Shown here one piece after another: positions 11,284-19,177 of a stretch of DNA of 25,485 bases. Under the pieces are notes generated by a model. That model worked only from the letters and a program-made list of their open reading frames with translations, ran no database searches and was not told the DNA's origin. The translations under genes were made by a program, and so were the position numbers. The first letter of the stretch is position 1. Each line of letters opens with the position of its first letter. This stretch comes from an uncultured Deinococcales bacterium (GTDB taxonomy: Bacteria; Deinococcota; Deinococci; Deinococcales; JAAFIG01): NCBI GenBank assembly GCA_964244895.1, contig CAXTKV010000054.1:1-25485 (forward strand), written 5' to 3'.

Positions 11284-12257
11284 GCGACCTTCAGATTGAA
11301 ATTCGAGCCGCACGCCTGCCGGATGATTACGCGGCCATCGCCGGGATCATCGCGGCGACCGACCCGGAGTTTGCGCCCACCGCCGAGGTGCTCGAGCGCG
11401 AGGATGCGTCGCTCGATCCGGCCTTGAACTTCGCGCGCTTCGTCGCGGAGGGCTCGAGCCAGGAGGTGCGCACTGCGGTCGGTACGGCCTCGGTCGGGCA
11501 CGACCGCTGGAATCCGAGCGAGGGCGTGTGGGTGCTGCACATCCGCGTGCAGCCCGAGTTTCAACGGCGCGGCATCGGCGGGCTTTTATACCAGCGCGTT
11601 CTGAAATACGCGTCCGAGCTGGGATTGCGCGAACTGAAAACCCAGGCTCGAGAGGACAACCATGCCGCCATTCGGTTCCTGACGAAGCTCGGCTTCCGCG
11701 AGGTCTGGCGGCGGTTCCAGTCCAGCCTCGAGACGGCGAACTTCGATTTCGGGCCGTACGCACACCTGGAGAAGCAAGTTGAAGCCAACGGCATCAGGAT
11801 TCTGACCTACCCGGAACTCGAGGCTGATCCCGGACGAGACCGGAAACTTTTCGAGCTGGACAAGGAACTCTCGTTGGACATCCCGACCGGCGAGGCACTG
11901 GTCGATCCCAGCTTCGAGCTCTGGAAAGCCGAATTTCTCGAGTCGCGACGCGTGCTGAAGGACGGGTTCTTCGTGGCGGTGGCGGGCCACGATTACGTCG
12001 GATTGAGCACGCTCTGGACGGACGGGCCAAGACTGCTGACCGCCATGACGGGCGTGCGGCGGTCGCACCGCGGGTTGGGGCTGGCGCTGGCGCTCAAATT
12101 GCGCGGTATTCAGTACGCCAAGGATCACGGCAGCAAGGAGATCACGACCATGAACGACGCGCCGAACGCCGCGATGATCGGCATCAACCAGAAACTGGGA
12201 TTCGAGCGCGCGCCCGAATGGGTGCGCTACGCCAGAAACTTCGAGGGAAATCCATGA
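11280..12257 (+). CDS. Tandem GNAT acetyltransferase, paralog 2
   Basis: VQPEFQRRGIGG and TGVRRSHRGLGLALALK...NDAPNAAMIGINQKLGF; GTGA overlap. Confidence 0.92.
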   Translation: MSDLQIEIRAARLPDDYAAIAGIIAATDPEFAPTAEVLEREDASLDPALNFARFVAEGSSQEVRTAVGTASVGHDRWNPSEGVWVLHIRVQPEFQRRGIGGLLYQRVLKYASELGLRELKTQAREDNHAAIRFLTKLGFREVWRRFQSSLETANFDFGPYAHLEKQVEANGIRILTYPELEADPGRDRKLFELDKELSLDIPTGEALVDPSFELWKAEFLESRRVLKDGFFVAVAGHDYVGLSTLWTDGPRLLTAMTGVRRSHRGLGLALALKLRGIQYAKDHGSKEITTMNDAPNAAMIGINQKLGFERAPEWVRYARNFEGNP

Positions 12258-13255
12258 GTACCGCCCCAGACGCACATTTCGAGATCCGCGCCACGCGCAC
12301 GCCCGAAGATTACACCGCCATCGCCGCCGTGCTGTACGCCGTCAACCCGGAATGGCCAGTCACGCCCGAAGACCTGGCCAGAGAGGACGCCGACCGCGAA
12401 GCGAAGTACCATTTTATGAGTTTCGTGGCGGAAGTCCTCGAGAATTCCGGGAATGGCCCCGAGCGGCGCATCGTCGGCGTGGGTACGGTCGGACACAACC
12501 CGTTCAGCCACCGTGAGGACAAGTACGGCGTGAACGTGCGCGTCCACCCGGAATTCCGTCGGCGCGGCATCGGGCAGGCGTTGTACCAGACGATCCTGAA
12601 CCACCTTTTGCCGCGCAACCCCGGTGAACTGGTGGGCTTCACGCGTGAGCACTGGCCGGAGGCGATCGGATGGCTGGAACGTCGCGGTTTCCGCGAGGTA
12701 CACCGCCGTTTCGAGTCGCGGCTGAAGCCCTCCAGCGTCAACCTCGAGCAGTACGCGGGCCTGGAGAATCGGGTGCGCGAAGCGGGCATCGAGATCAAAA
12801 CGTTTTCAGAGATCACCGACCCCGAGCGCGAGCGCAAACTCTACGAATTGGACGCGGAAACCATGCAGGACGTACCCTTCGGCGAACCCGTCACCATGCC
12901 CAGCTTCGAGCAGTTCAAAAAAACGGATCTCGAAGGCCCGAGTTACGTGCCGGACGGTATTTTTATCGCGCTCAGGGGTGAGGAATTCGTTGGACTCTCG
13001 AGCTTCGCGCACGATCCAGGCGCTGATTTCGTCGGCATCCGCATGACCGGCGTGAAACGCGATTATCGCGGGTTGGGGTTGGCCAAACTCCTGAAATTGC
13101 GCGGCCTGCAGTACGCGCTGGAACACGGCGATCTGGAGATCCGCACCACCAACGATCCCGATAACGCTGGCATGCTCAAGATCAACCGCGACATGGGTTT
13201 CTCGCCGCAACCCGCGTCGTTGCGCTTCTCGAAGATGCTCGGGCGATCCGAGTGA
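12254..13255 (+). CDS. Tandem GNAT acetyltransferase, paralog 3
   Basis: VHPEFRRRGIGQAL and TGVKRDYRGLGLAKLLK...NDPDNAGMLKINRDMGF; ATGA overlap at 12254. Confidence 0.92.
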   Translation: MSTAPDAHFEIRATRTPEDYTAIAAVLYAVNPEWPVTPEDLAREDADREAKYHFMSFVAEVLENSGNGPERRIVGVGTVGHNPFSHREDKYGVNVRVHPEFRRRGIGQALYQTILNHLLPRNPGELVGFTREHWPEAIGWLERRGFREVHRRFESRLKPSSVNLEQYAGLENRVREAGIEIKTFSEITDPERERKLYELDAETMQDVPFGEPVTMPSFEQFKKTDLEGPSYVPDGIFIALRGEEFVGLSSFAHDPGADFVGIRMTGVKRDYRGLGLAKLLKLRGLQYALEHGDLEIRTTNDPDNAGMLKINRDMGFSPQPASLRFSKMLGRSE

Positions 13256-13273
13256 ACTCGATCCTCGAGCGAA

Positions 13274-13334
13274 GAGAACACCGTTCAGGACGGCGTTCTC
13301 TCGAGATGGAACTCTCGCGTCCCAGACGGTGTCC
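13274..13334. repeat. REP-like doublet between convergent genes
   Basis: GAGAACACCGTTCAGGACGGCGTTCT-CTCGAG-...CGCGTCCCAGACGGTGTCC. Confidence 0.8.
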
Positions 13335-13335
13335 T

Positions 13336-13533
13336 TCAATCCTTGACGCCGAAGGTTCTGCTGACCAGATGATCGATCAACAAGAACAGCCCCAAACCCA
13401 ACAAGAGCAATCCCCACCACGGCATCTGCACCCAGATCACGATGAAGACGCGCTCGAGCACCTTATAGAGCAAAAACCCGAAAATCAGCGTCGTGACCAG
13501 GCTGGCCAGGGTGCGGCGAACGTCTTTGAACAT
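13336..13533 (-). CDS. Small two-TM membrane protein (65 aa)
   Basis: Two hydrophobic helices; leaderless TATCCT (13545-13540) 6 nt before ATG; fills the gap between GNAT genes. Confidence 0.75.
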   Translation of the reverse strand: MFKDVRRTLASLVTTLIFGFLLYKVLERVFIVIWVQMPWWGLLLLGLGLFLLIDHLVSRTFGVKD

Positions 13534-13555
13534 GACATAAGGATAAGGGATCAGC

Positions 13556-14509
13556 GTGAACTACACGATTCGAGCCTTCAAACTTGAGGATGTACCCGGC
13601 TTCATCGCCGCGCAGAACGAGGCCACACCGCAACACCCGTTGTCACAGGGTGAATTCGAGCGCGATCTGGACAGGCTCGAGCCGCACTTGCAACCTCGCC
13701 TACTCGTCGCAGAGGCGGATGGCGATCTCGTCGGTGGAGCCAGTTTCTACCGCAACGCAGGCGCTTACCATCCGCACAAGTTCCAGTTGCAAGTCTTCGT
13801 CAGGCCAGCATTTCAATCTCGGGGCGTCGGAAAGGCGCTCTACGACGCGGTACTCGAGGAATTGGCCGCACTCGAGCCGATCAGCTTGAGCGCGCACGTG
13901 CGCGAGAGCGAACCGCGAGCCGTGCGGTTCGCCGCGAGTCGCGGTTTTCTGGAAACCAAGCGCGATTTCGAGAGCATCCTCGAGACGGAAGGTTTCAATG
14001 CGAGCCTCTATGGCCGTCTTTTCTCGAGGCTCGAGCGCGAGGGCGTGAGCTTCAAAAGCTTCCGCGACCTGGACACGCCAGCCTTCCGGCGCGCCTTCCA
14101 CGAGGTCTTCGGGGTCGTGCGGCTGGACGTGCCGCGCAGCGAAGCACCCACACCGTTGAGCTTCGAGTTCTTCAATGAGAACGTGATCGACGATCCCGAG
14201 ATGCTCCAGGATGTCTTCTGGTTTGCGCTCAGGGGTGAAAAGATTCTCGGCTTCACGGGCGGCTACCGGGGCGCGAAACCGGGCTGGATGGACACCTGGC
14301 TGACCGCCGTAACCCGCGAGGCTCGAGGGTGCGGGATCGCGACGGCGCTCAAAATTCGAGCGATCCAGGCGGCGAAAGTGGCGGGCTTCACCAGCATCCG
14401 CACCGACAACGACACGAGAAACAGCGCGATGCTGGCCGTCAACGTCAAGCTCGGGTTTGCGCGGCAACCCGCCGTTTTGAGCGTGCGCAAGATCTTCCGC
14501 GATGAATAA
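13556..14509 (+). CDS. Tandem GNAT acetyltransferase, paralog 4
   Basis: VRPAFQSRGVGKAL and TAVTREARGCGIATALK...NDTRNSAMLAVNVKLGF; SD AAGGGA before GTG. Confidence 0.92.
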   Translation: MNYTIRAFKLEDVPGFIAAQNEATPQHPLSQGEFERDLDRLEPHLQPRLLVAEADGDLVGGASFYRNAGAYHPHKFQLQVFVRPAFQSRGVGKALYDAVLEELAALEPISLSAHVRESEPRAVRFAASRGFLETKRDFESILETEGFNASLYGRLFSRLEREGVSFKSFRDLDTPAFRRAFHEVFGVVRLDVPRSEAPTPLSFEFFNENVIDDPEMLQDVFWFALRGEKILGFTGGYRGAKPGWMDTWLTAVTREARGCGIATALKIRAIQAAKVAGFTSIRTDNDTRNSAMLAVNVKLGFARQPAVLSVRKIFRDE

Positions 14510-14570
14510 CACCGTCCAGCACGGTGTTTCTCGAGATGACAAGAACACCGTCCGGGACGGTGCGCTCGAG
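14508..14570. repeat. Two tandem REP-like palindromes, each followed by CTCGAG
   Basis: (T)AACACCGTCCAGCACGGTGTTT-CTCGAG-atgacaa-GAACACCGTCCGGGACGGTGCG-CTCGAG. Confidence 0.9.
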
Positions 14571-14613
14571 AATCAACCCGAAGAACCTGTTACCTTCTAA
14601 CCAGAGGAACCCC

Positions 14614-15570
14614 ATGCTCGAAATTCGAGAATTCCAGGAAAGCGATTACGCCGCCATCGCCATCGTCTACAACGCCGCGCAACCCGAGAAGAATCACACC
14701 GCCGACGGCCTGCGCCACGCGGACGGGACGCGGGACGAGAAGTGCAAGCACGCGCGCTGGGTGGCGGAAATGGCTGGTCGGATCGTCGGCGTGGCCGAGT
14801 ACGACCAGTTCGCGGGCATGTACCACCCGCGCAAGTTCGGCGCTTGGGTTCACCTGGAACCCCAGCACGACAACGTGCAAAACCGCGCGGCGCTGTGGGA
14901 TCGGATCGTGGCGGCGCTCGAGGTCTTCGAGCCGTTGAGCATCCTGTCTTACGGGCGCGAGGATCGGCGCGCGACGATTGAATTCCTGGTATCGCAGGGC
15001 TTTCAGGAAAAAATGCGCTACTGGGAATCCAGGTTAGACGTGAACGCCTTCGATCCAGCACCATACAAAGGCGTGCAGGACGATGTTCACGCGGCGGGCT
15101 TCGAGATCAAAACGCTGGCGGAGCTTGGGGATGACCCCGAGTACAGGCAAAAGCTGTTCGAGCTCTGGGCCGATTGCCGCCGCGACGTACCGCGCCCGGA
15201 CGAGGCCACCGAGGTCGGCTTTGCGCAGTTCAGCAAGTGGACGTTTGAAAGCCCGTACCTGCTGCGCGACGCGTGTTTCATCGCGCTCGAGACACTGACG
15301 GGGCGTTGGGCTGGCATGTCGCAACTCTGGAAATCCGAGGGCGCGTACCTGAGCACCGGCTTGACCGCCGTGCGCCGAGAGTACCGGCGCAACAGGTTGG
15401 CGCTGGCCACGAAATTGCGCGGCATCGAGTACGCCAGATCCGTGAATTCGCCGGAAATTCGCACGGGCAACGAGAGCAACAACCGGGGAATGCTATCCAT
15501 CAACGAGGCGTTGGGCTTCGTCAAGCAGCCCGCCTGGATCGATCTGGTCAAGGTCTTGCGGGAGGAGTGA
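14614..15570 (+). CDS. Tandem GNAT acetyltransferase, paralog 5 (degenerate CoA-binding loops)
   Basis: YHPRKF, WESRL..AFDPAPY, TAVRREYRRNRLALATK...NESNNRGMLSINEALGF; SD AGAGGA before ATG 14614. Confidence 0.9.
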   Translation: MLEIREFQESDYAAIAIVYNAAQPEKNHTADGLRHADGTRDEKCKHARWVAEMAGRIVGVAEYDQFAGMYHPRKFGAWVHLEPQHDNVQNRAALWDRIVAALEVFEPLSILSYGREDRRATIEFLVSQGFQEKMRYWESRLDVNAFDPAPYKGVQDDVHAAGFEIKTLAELGDDPEYRQKLFELWADCRRDVPRPDEATEVGFAQFSKWTFESPYLLRDACFIALETLTGRWAGMSQLWKSEGAYLSTGLTAVRREYRRNRLALATKLRGIEYARSVNSPEIRTGNESNNRGMLSINEALGFVKQPAWIDLVKVLREE

Positions 15571-17227: not shown

Positions 17228-17680
17228 TCAGCCCATCTTGAGGAACATCGGCGGCTCCACGCCGACCATCCGAGCCATCATCCAGATCTGACCCTTGTGG
17301 TGCGCGGTGTGCTGAATCACGCCGTCCACCAGGGCGTGAACGGGCATCTGACGCCCGCCGAAACCCGTCACGGTCGCGGAAATCTGCTCGGGTGCCATCG
17401 CCTCGAAGTGCGCGCGGGTGGCGTCGGTCGAGGCGCGCAGGCGATCCAGGGCGGCGGGCCAGTCAGCGCTGGGTTCCGGCTTGGCGGGCGTCTGTCCGGC
17501 CAGCATGACCCCGAAGCGCTCCATCGAACCGCTGAGGTGATCCGTCAGGCGTTTGAAGCTCATGCCGCCGTCCCAGGCGGCAAAATCGGATTGTTCTGCG
17601 GGCAGTTTCTCGAGCAGTTCGATCAACGGGACGGAATGCGAGGCGAAAGCGCGGGCGTACTCGAGTCCAGTGTTCGGCAC
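17228..17680 (-). CDS. DinB-family protein
   Basis: WDGGMSFKRLTDHL and IQHTAHHKGQIWMMARMVGVEPP; SD GGAGG (17692-17688) and -10 TAGGCT (17705-17700). Confidence 0.9.
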   Translation of the reverse strand: MPNTGLEYARAFASHSVPLIELLEKLPAEQSDFAAWDGGMSFKRLTDHLSGSMERFGVMLAGQTPAKPEPSADWPAALDRLRASTDATRAHFEAMAPEQISATVTGFGGRQMPVHALVDGVIQHTAHHKGQIWMMARMVGVEPPMFLKMG

Positions 17681-17926: not shown

Positions 17927-17956
17927 AAAAAGGAGCCGGGTGAACTGCCCGGCCCC
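17927..17956 (-). terminator. Intrinsic terminator
   Basis: Minus strand GGGGCCGGG-cagttca-CCCGGCTCC-TTTTT. Confidence 0.85.
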
Positions 17957-18151
17957 TCTCGATACCCGTCTGGGTTTGGGGTTTCGCCCCTACCCGTGTT
18001 CGGGATTCAGTCGCTCCGTTTTCGGAGGCGATCCTGGCGGTGCGAATTGGCGGCTCAGCCGCAACGCGCCACCGCTTGTGAAGCTAGCCCCGACGGGCAC
18101 CTCCACCAACCGAATAATCATTTAACAGTTGGACCACCTCCTTTCTGGTGT
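17927..18151 (-). ncRNA. Candidate structured sRNA / sORF-containing RNA with an extended SD at the 5' end
   Basis: Own extended -10 (TGaTACGAT, 18166-18158); 5' AGAAAGGAGGTGGTCCA; about five hairpins plus a long-range helix; intrinsic terminator. Confidence 0.6.
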
Positions 18152-18178
18152 ACGGGGATCGTATCATTTCTTTTACCT

Positions 18179-19177
18179 GTGACTGTGAATCAATTGACCA
18201 ACCCCGTCATACGCCACAATGCCGATCCCTCGCAGCCCGGTTCGTTCCTGGCGGTCGGTGATCTGGCCTGGGACGTGCTGGCCAAGCCCGATCAGAGCCT
18301 GTTGCCGGGCGGTGATACGACCGGGCTGGTGGCCCTTTCGGGAGGCGGCTCGAGCGCCAACGTGGCCGTCTGGGCGGCGCGGACTGGCATGCCGACGGGC
18401 TTTTTGGGCAAGGTCGGCAACGACCGTTTCGGTCACGAGGCCGTACAGGATCTGGAACTCGAGGGCGTCAGGCCGCACATCGTCTGGGACGAGACGCACC
18501 CGACGGGCGTGATTCTGGTGCTGATCGATTCGGGCGGGCAGCGTTCGATGCTGTCGTCTCAGGGCGCAGATTTCAGACTCGAGCCCGAGGAATTGCCCAC
18601 GGCGGCCATCAGCGCGGCGGGGCACGTCCACATCACGGCCTGGAGCATGTTCACCGATCCGCCGCGCCGTGCAGCCCTGCGCGCGGCGCGGTTGGCGCTC
18701 GAGGGCGGCGCGAGCGTGTCCTTCGATCCGGGGTCCTACCAGATGATCCGCGAGATCGGGCGCGAGGAATTCAAACGCCTGACGCGCGAATTGCGTTTCG
18801 ATTACATCCTGCCGAACCTCGAAGAAGGCCGCTCCCTGACGGGCGCAAAACACCCGCGCGAAGTGCTGGAGGCGCTCCGCGAGCTGTACCCGGAAACCAT
18901 GATTCTCTTAAAACTCGACAAGGAAGGCGCGCTGATCGCGGAGGGCGAACGCGTGCTCGAGGTTCCGGCCTCGGATGACCGCGTGATCGACGCCACCGGC
19001 GCGGGCGATGCGTTCGGCGGGGCGTTTCTGGGGCATTACCTGCGTTCGCACGACGCGCTGGCCGCCGCCGGGCTCGCGGTTCAGGTCGCGGGCTGGGTGG
19101 TCGGGCATTTCGGTGCGCGACCCGCGCCCGACGCAAACCTGGCAGCGCGCATCGGGCGGTACGGGGTTCAGCTCTGA
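18179..19177 (+). CDS. PfkB/ribokinase-family carbohydrate kinase
   Basis: GGGSSANVAVWAAR, GKVGNDRFG, DATGAGDAFGGAFL. Start revised from 17996 to GTG 18179 (or 18185), downstream of TATCAT 18162-18167. Confidence 0.9.
   Translation: MTVNQLTNPVIRHNADPSQPGSFLAVGDLAWDVLAKPDQSLLPGGDTTGLVALSGGGSSANVAVWAARTGMPTGFLGKVGNDRFGHEAVQDLELEGVRPHIVWDETHPTGVILVLIDSGGQRSMLSSQGADFRLEPEELPTAAISAAGHVHITAWSMFTDPPRRAALRAARLALEGGASVSFDPGSYQMIREIGREEFKRLTRELRFDYILPNLEEGRSLTGAKHPREVLEALRELYPETMILLKLDKEGALIAEGERVLEVPASDDRVIDATGAGDAFGGAFLGHYLRSHDALAAAGLAVQVAGWVVGHFGARPAPDANLAARIGRYGVQL

Follow-up and report, generated by a model that had tools for sequence, protein, structure and literature searches.

Which kind of gene lies on the minus strand between a divergent pfkB-family kinase gene and dinB in an uncultured Deinococcales bacterium, and what would its product do? 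The 25,485-nt stretch of DNA that was analysed (hereafter the window) had been read before from its letters alone. The original prediction placed there a structured RNA that begins with a near-perfect complement of the 16S rRNA 3' tail and would be a ribosome-binding sponge or decoy, a switchable short-ORF mRNA or a type I toxin-like mRNA. All the motifs that it listed were found at their positions, including the extended -10 element. As judged from its conservation, the element is a real, stand-alone, structured small RNA with a predicted promoter and terminator of its own, the features of which are collected in Table 1.

Table 1. Features of the RNA locus and its neighbours (window coordinates)
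Feature	Position	Strand	Remarks
Whole RNA	18151..17927	-	Length 225 nt; +1 predicted at the A of 18151
Extended -10 promoter element (TGn + TACGAT)	18158..18166	-	Conserved across homologs
Ultra-long Shine-Dalgarno (SD) sequence	18125..18146	-	Core GGAGG at 18141-18137; 22 nt with G-U, reaching helix 45
Hairpin P0	18106..18132	-	18132-18126 with 18112-18106; encloses the start and the AU-rich codons; pair probability 0.91-0.98
14-codon mini-ORF LLNDYSVGGGARRG	18084..18128	-	Near-cognate CTG at SD+8, stop TAG 18086-18084; predicted translation
5' strand of long-range helix P1 (18101-18092) and P2	18087..18101	-	Equals codons 10-14
Internal 16S-tail mimic	18024..18034	-	Agrees with the 16S tail at 10/11 positions; complementary to the RNA's own SD over 11 bp
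A-rich bulge (17977-17971) and 3' strand of P1 (17970-17961)	17961..17977	-	Conserved
Intrinsic terminator hairpin and U run	17927..17960	-	Directly after P1; folded 13-bp stem and U5
pfkB-family kinase gene	18194..19177	+	Divergent; kept upstream within its own family
DinB-family gene (dinB)	17228..17680	-	Downstream of the RNA, same strand

Gene boundaries and neighbourhood

The 5' ACAC or ACCAC start is kept across homologs, and the +1 of the window RNA is a predicted one. Among 67 distinct homologous upstream regions, a TAnnnT box precedes the predicted start by 6 nt in 65 and by 5 or 7 nt in the remaining two, with the TGn extension of the -10 element present in 19. The promoter call for the window RNA rests on this conservation, because a simple consensus scanner found no promoter there. 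The same scanner called no terminator; the strong terminator originally proposed stands as a folded hairpin with its U run, and it forms in every modelled folding state of the window RNA. The 3' ends of the homologs are hairpins with U runs as well, of sequences unrelated to one another.

On the upstream side, each family retains its divergent gene. On the downstream side the genes belong to various families, lie on either strand and are often convergent, which argues that the RNA is a gene of its own. It is present as a single copy in its genome. In a public metatranscriptome, one 162-nt contig (depth 3.6) from a relative that is 90-95% alike lies wholly inside the RNA; of the 701 bases compared it covers 17999-18139 only. 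The contig supports expression weakly, and contigs cannot show the ends of an RNA.

Two further observations concern the window itself. Just past the terminator, a short imperfect repeat in two copies of about 15 nt occupies 17910-17865 (minus strand); Tandem Repeats Finder scored nothing, this repeat included. On the plus strand, positions 12218-15570 hold an APH-family phosphotransferase gene preceded by three double-domain GNAT-like acetyltransferase genes in tandem; Pfam matches were obtained for two of the three GNAT-like genes and none for the third.

Distribution of homologs

Homologs were found in 17 of the 18 genomes of the same family, the one without being 57% complete. A two-motif pattern that left the spacing free gave 49 further loci in GTDB genomes, labelled Trueperaceae, Truepera, Deinococcales, Deinococcaceae or uncultured bacterium. 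A search of 101 genomes with model R1, trained on 43 Deinococcota sequences only, gave strong matches in 4/4 genomes of family f2 and in two small genera of family f3. It found nothing real in the Deinococcus-like group g7 (53 genomes) or in the Thermus-like families f5 (37 genomes) and f4 (4 genomes), where nine weak matches proved on reading to be other sequence. A second model, R2, gave none above 19.3 bits in eight Deinococcus-like and Thermus-like genomes. Since neither the Deinococcus-like nor the Thermus-like genomes searched yielded a copy, the RNA appears to be dispensable there.

A pattern scan of 301 genomes with two mismatches allowed was too noisy outside families f1 and f2. BLASTN against plasmids and phages gave short chance matches only, none covering more than 21%, and the exact 5' motif had 0 matches in viral contigs. 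Looser 5' motifs in viral contigs marked mostly ordinary genes with long SDs, together with four to five loci resembling the Rfam family CC2171. As a lead only, an ESM Atlas result on one neighbour of locus L104 points to Thermodesulfobacteriota.

The ultra-long Shine-Dalgarno sequence

Pairing between the RNA and the 3' end of the genome's own 16S rRNA (contig C124) extends over 17 nt (18146-18130) and, once G-U is allowed, over 22 consecutive nucleotides (18146-18125). Among the 9,997 GG(A/G)GG sites of the genome this is the longest complement, the rRNA gene itself excepted, and the next measures 18 nt. In strength the complement is matched by another site: against the 15-nt single-stranded 16S tail, the ribosome-binding site of an ordinary gene on contig C187 reaches a duplex energy of -26.6 kcal/mol, compared with -25.6 kcal/mol for the window RNA. 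Because of this site, a long SD alone is not unique; equally long SDs also occur in phage genes, so that the SD by itself is not the finding.

Invasion of 16S helix 45 by the RNA, for which the 22-nt pairing leaves room in the window, was rejected as a general feature. The extension into helix 45 does not covary, the AAC or AGC of the RNA not following the 16S sequence; the same helix 45 occurs in all 11 family genomes with a match, and the Trueperaceae-type copies lack the extension.

Strong SDs ahead of very short frames were also seen at other loci. Six viral contigs (L247, L266, L276, L281, L243 and L265) carry tiny Lys/Gly-rich ORFs of 11-46 codons behind very long SDs, and these were set aside as not belonging to the class of the window RNA. 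In the organism's own genome, contig C18 bears at about 36490-37300 (plus strand) a cluster of 13-codon ORFs, three or more, that resemble one another (MKKIRKG...W..) and follow strong SDs; they are perhaps peptide precursors.

A conserved frame with a near-cognate start

Eight nucleotides after GGAGG, the 63 distinct Deinococcota 5' regions carry ATT (21), CTG (17), ATA (13) or ATC (10), that is, a near-cognate codon in 61 of 63; of the two left, one has CTG at +9 and one TTG at +10. A later match (L296), read by eye, has ATT at +7 and again 14 codons. Canonical starts (ATG, GTG or TTG) between +4 and +12 are depleted, with 2 observed in 53 distinct regions and 16.6 +/- 3.3 expected. The frame that follows is 13-15 codons long in 60 of the 63 homologs. 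Its AU-rich part (71% A+T) is free of stops in 62 of 63, compared with 23 and 19 of 63 for the other frames, and shuffling predicts a stop in frame in 26.6 +/- 3.8 of the 63 sequences; as the homologs are related, these counts of frames and starts overstate independence. Of the two short frames proposed originally, the 14-codon frame from CTG 18128 is thus the conserved one. The 43-codon ORF from ATG 18121 falls away, an ATG at +15 being found in one of the 63 homologs, which is the window itself.

The length of the mini-ORF changes in 3-nt steps, except in genus g2 and in L029, and in one genus (L016 and L023) a CUG stands in another frame and the stop comes later. The distance from the start of P1 to the stop is 15 nt in Deinococcota, with the stop sitting just behind P1.

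Conservation of the frame does not extend to its product. In close pairs, pN/pS is 2.3 over codons 2-7. Across 38 distinct 14-codon frames, the AU-rich codons 2-6 vary at all three positions, codons 9, 10 and 12 do not change even at the third position, and the residue at codon 13 is R, L, P, Q or H, switching where P2 covaries. The 14-mer is hydrophilic and without a membrane segment. As these alignments indicate, the mini-ORF is conserved as a frame and not as a peptide, and the RNA probably works by sensing or engaging translation initiation rather than via its peptide.

A strong SD with a non-canonical start at a working spacing has a counterpart in infC. In the organism's own genome and in the 5/5 relatives read (6 genomes), infC carries GGAGGUG with GTA or ATA at the same +8 as the window RNA. 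According to PMC13009471, extended SDs in S. aureus guide initiation to non-canonical codons with about 10% of the efficiency of AUG, and the Discussion of that paper, citing earlier work, has IF3 modulate such starts. The S. aureus genes cvfC1 and ccpN, as described there, likewise combine a strong SD with a non-canonical codon at +8. The starts of infC, cvfC1 and ccpN control a protein gene in cis, whereas the window RNA has a 14-codon frame with no conserved product.

As an observation on infC itself (contig C12 of the organism's genome, minus strand, near offset 26126; loci L290 and L291), the start in the organism's own family seems to be GTA, which is unusual even among non-canonical codons, and the f2 and f3 genomes read have ATA.

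Fold, alternative states and the internal 16S mimic

The RNA is structured, as had been predicted: its folding z-score is -4.9 over 240 nt and -3.6 without the terminator, and in either case 0 of 200 shuffles were as stable. In the model, P0 must open for initiation; the other lineages show an equivalent pairing in a different register. With the 5' end at 18151, P1 has a pair probability of about 0.95 and the second hairpin of the original prediction one of about 0.05, the two being mutually exclusive as proposed. The second hairpin was dropped as a conserved element, since it is not kept as such in the homologs and belongs to an alternative fold. The hairpins between 18080 and 17980 are lineage-specific insertions. 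Within the 43 Deinococcota sequences, P1 is 96% paired with 0/10 pairs changed on both sides, and in P2 3/5 pairs are so changed.

The internal mimic of the 16S tail pairs with the SD of the same RNA at -21.1 kcal/mol (z -4.1 in the window RNA). A complement of the SD with z below -2 against interior shuffles was found in 29 of 62 Deinococcota homologs vs 4 of 65 others. In Deinococcota it lies mostly 1-5 nt after the stop, and some copies lack it (L018, L029 and L084). Its bases track the SD variant, GGUCC occurring with GGACC and GAUCC with GGAUC, and the additional GGAC or GGAU fit the SD of the same RNA, an agreement that points to cis pairing.

Two folds are predicted at 1.8 kcal/mol from each other, one with the SD exposed (-107.0 kcal/mol) and one with the SD locked by the mimic (-105.2 kcal/mol). 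In the full-length fold P1 is closed and the SD core exposed, nascent RNA of 135-165 nt prefers the SD-locked fold, and forcing the pairing of SD and mimic restores the second hairpin of the original prediction. When a ribosome was modelled at the stop, the mimic locked the SD with one blocked range and not with another (minimum free energy, window RNA). SD:mimic and P1 together would form an H-type pseudoknot, which the energies quoted do not include. Among the identities first considered, a switchable short-ORF mRNA fits these results, given the conserved CTG frame and the two closely spaced folds.

Relation to Rfam families

The Rfam check returned 0 matches in the window at gathering level. 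The best sub-threshold matches were Ms_IGR-5 (RF02471; 19.9 bits, cut-off 45) and CC2171 (RF01867; 12.3 bits, cut-off 75), and two other Deinococcota copies reached 25.2 and 28.8 bits against Ms_IGR-5, below the same cut-off of 45. A metagenome scan for the 5' motif gave at least 119 stretches, of which 80 were listed, with a pattern that forced a nearby ATH and so biased the start codons; among the matches listed were RNAs with the same layout. Of 16 loci tested (14 from metagenomes, 2 from Deinococcota), 10 pass the Ms_IGR-5 cut-off, and neither Deinococcota locus does.

Whole-core homology was supported reciprocally. Model R1 scored full-length Actinobacteria-type loci at 26-45 bits, with one divergent copy at 18.9 (83 loci given), and nine ordinary long-SD genes at 7-19 bits. 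Model R2 scored held-out loci of further types at 43-60 bits, two others at 26 and 32, and one phage gene at 28.8. In a joint alignment of 66 sequences (A2), which was fitted to the model, the long-range helix that ends at the terminator is shared: P1 is 97% paired, with 6/10 pairs changed on both sides across groups, and slid controls are 34-45% paired. The covariation looked for from the outset is thus present in P1 between groups and in P2, and absent from P1 within Deinococcota.

Ms_IGR-5 and the window RNA have in common the 5' ACAC..AAGGAGGUGGUCC, P0, a second GAGGUG, the A-rich bulge, a P1 closing just before the terminator and a hidden ORF stopping behind P1. In the non-Deinococcota relatives a UUG, GUG or AUG opens an ORF of 12-22 codons, in a sample biased by the search pattern. 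In non-Deinococcota, non-alpha loci the distance from the start of P1 to the stop is 13 nt in 62/62 kept of the 80 given, truncated, split and duplicate loci having been dropped; the frame relative to P1 differs from that of Deinococcota. The hidden ORF of Ms_IGR-5 has 12 codons and a UUG start at +11/12, whereas the window branch uses CUG or AUH at +8, has its frame shifted against P1, carries the internal 16S mimic and has P1 altered by compensatory changes.

Because R1 scores the Ms_IGR-5 loci well above the long-SD controls and P1 covaries between the groups, the window RNA is placed as a homologous Deinococcota sister branch of Ms_IGR-5, outside RF02471 by the cut-off. The original view of an undescribed system is accordingly replaced by that of a divergent relative of a known family. 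In the sequences compared, the near-cognate starts and the SD-locking 16S mimic are specific to the Deinococcota branch. What is new here is the link between the non-AUG branch and Ms_IGR-5, the shift of the frame against P1 and the internal 16S mimic.

Ms_IGR-5 is an Actinobacteria sRNA. In 10.1101/2021.12.14.472595, IGR-5 of M. smegmatis (ncMSMEG15794c) is a validated, uncharacterized, NAD-capped sRNA between MSMEG_5794 and MSMEG_5795, and it also appears in PMC10454040 and PMC8079986. For Ms_IGR-5, no paper was found that assigns it a function, describes an ORF or notes a complement to 16S, and none was found on any Deinococcota copy; subscription papers and supplements may hold more.

A separate observation concerns metagenome contigs in which the Actinobacteria-type RNA gene appears to be a target of mobile-element insertion (L100:301-336, L119, L113 and L125). 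In L100 and L119 the native promoter and the first ~36 nt are kept and foreign DNA follows; in L113 and L125 an intact RNA stands behind a foreign promoter (compare the intact L174 and L095). A short CACCCCGGCG direct repeat is common to both sides, and the arrangement resembles an att site through which the gene is rebuilt; the 300-nt flanks showed no integrase. From position 301, L101 and L150 have the same foreign promoter and 5' end with a different 3' half, which holds a 22-24-codon ORF and its own terminator and is possibly an element-borne substitute RNA. Mobile elements appear to treat this gene as they do tRNA and tmRNA genes, inserting in it and rebuilding it, which suggests that the host needs the RNA.

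The resemblance to CC2171 was taken as analogy only. Both RNAs have a long SD, a short ORF running through a long-range helix, and a terminator, and homology was not supported, the CC2171-like loci scoring 8-17 bits with R1 and R2, which is long-SD background; by its own score the window RNA is no member of RF01867. The CC2171-like loci start at GUG and the window RNA at the near-cognate CTG. In 10.1101/2022.01.24.477521, CC2171 is reported as confirmed by Northern blot in Methylorubrum. According to PMC4117421, Caulobacter CCNA_R0051 (between CC_2171 and CC_2172) contains the 87-nt ORF CCNA_03965, which ribosome profiling had mapped. Its listed start is CTG, its expression is given as 0 RPKM for rich medium and 2,049 for minimal medium, and its YFP fusion was among four reported to give a band. 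The listed start could not be matched to the alpha loci of this analysis.

In two viral contigs, the CC2171-like RNAs (L238:585-655 and L282:115-185) adjoin a tRNA gene, and these stretches are probably host DNA at prophage ends. Another viral contig (L275:273-343) has a Hammerhead type II match of 36.1 bits (cut-off 37) near a long-SD 19-codon ORF.

Proposed mechanism and alternatives

The frame is kept while its start swaps among four near-cognate codons and it shifts against the helix, which suggests that translation itself is selected and makes IF3 a candidate input. We propose a translation-coupled, IF3-sensitive mini-mRNA switch, whose function would lie in ribosome loading and occasional translation and not in the peptide, and we hold this reading to be evenly poised between right and wrong. 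In it, 30S subunits would bind tightly to the SD core exposed in the full-length fold, and IF3 would reject most of these complexes because the start codon is weak. When discrimination slackens, through low IF3 per 30S subunit or a changed initiation capacity, a ribosome would initiate, unwind P1 and P2 and terminate with their 5' strands inside it. The RNA might then refold, its 3' domain released and its SD locked through pairing with the 16S mimic, so that its fold, lifetime or ribosome occupancy would report the state of initiation. Candidate outputs are decay, a trans partner of the 3' domain, or the holding of 30S subunits. The starts outside Deinococcota are UUG, GUG or AUG, and IF3 sensing can therefore not be a class-wide rule in its strict form.

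A wider proposal is put forward tentatively, as possible though on balance doubtful: free-standing test mRNAs in several phyla would monitor initiation, with the Deinococcota branch as a sensor of IF3 and start fidelity in which initiation melts P1 and flips the RNA to the SD-locked state, releasing the 3' module or the 30S subunit.

The first alternative, which we regard as rather improbable, is a 30S decoy or storage RNA, whose long duplex would hold small subunits, for example in stationary phase, with the weak start and short frame limiting or clearing rare initiation. The maximal 16S complementarity, the selection against canonical starts, the stand-alone gene with its variable downstream neighbours and the exposed SD core all agree with it, and a structured RNA built to bind the 30S subunit, as predicted from the sequence, is the part of the earlier decoy idea that we retain. 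As a purely non-coding sponge or decoy, the RNA would leave the conserved frame unexplained; alone, this reading also does not account for the fixed P1-to-stop distance, the length changes in 3-nt steps and the internal SD lock. Those relatives that start at GUG or AUG would be translated. To act as a sponge, the RNA would have to be highly abundant, and the Caulobacter analogue reaches about 900-1,500 RPKM in PMC4117421.

Unlikely is a dual-function sRNA, protected or activated by ribosome loading, in which the bulge and the 3' strand of P1, or the CU-rich mimic, would pair with the SDs of other mRNAs or bind a protein. The A-rich bulge conserved across groups and the anti-SD-like stretch in many Deinococcota copies would suit it, but the extra bases of the mimic follow the RNA's own SD and so speak for pairing in cis.

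That the RNA acts through its 14-residue peptide, as a signal, as an arrest peptide with C-terminal GG(A/T)RRG or as a type I toxin, we consider very unlikely. The frame is open and its C-terminus constant within Deinococcota. Type I toxin mRNAs (txpA/bsrG, aapA) have very long SDs and metastable SD-locking hairpins, which the folds described here recall, and they share with the window RNA the long SD, an SD-locked nascent fold and long-range pairing. Unlike them, the window RNA shows no conserved hydrophobic peptide, canonical start or antisense partner; a consensus scan for an antisense RNA found no promoter-like site on either strand and missed the sense promoter as well. The freely varying N-terminal codons (pN/pS above 1) and the hydrophilic 14-mer set the type I toxin-like mRNA of the original prediction aside. 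The C-terminal constancy is one of nucleotides, the residue at codon 13 changing with P2, and the Ms_IGR-5 loci read the same helix in another frame.

A cis-acting attenuator of the downstream gene is barely credible: the leader ORF overlaps alternative helices just before the terminator and dinB follows on the same strand, but the genes downstream belong to different families and are often convergent, every modelled state contains the terminator, the sequence of which is unrelated among homologs, and neither a conserved downstream gene nor an antiterminator was found.

Ms_IGR-5 and CC2171 are catalogued as non-coding, with no known function in the papers found. If the wider proposal is true, the RNA of the Deinococcota branch would be riboswitch-like, with the ribosome as its ligand. 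If the switch or the storage reading is true, bacteria would have a free-standing RNA that reads the fidelity of initiation or stores small subunits.
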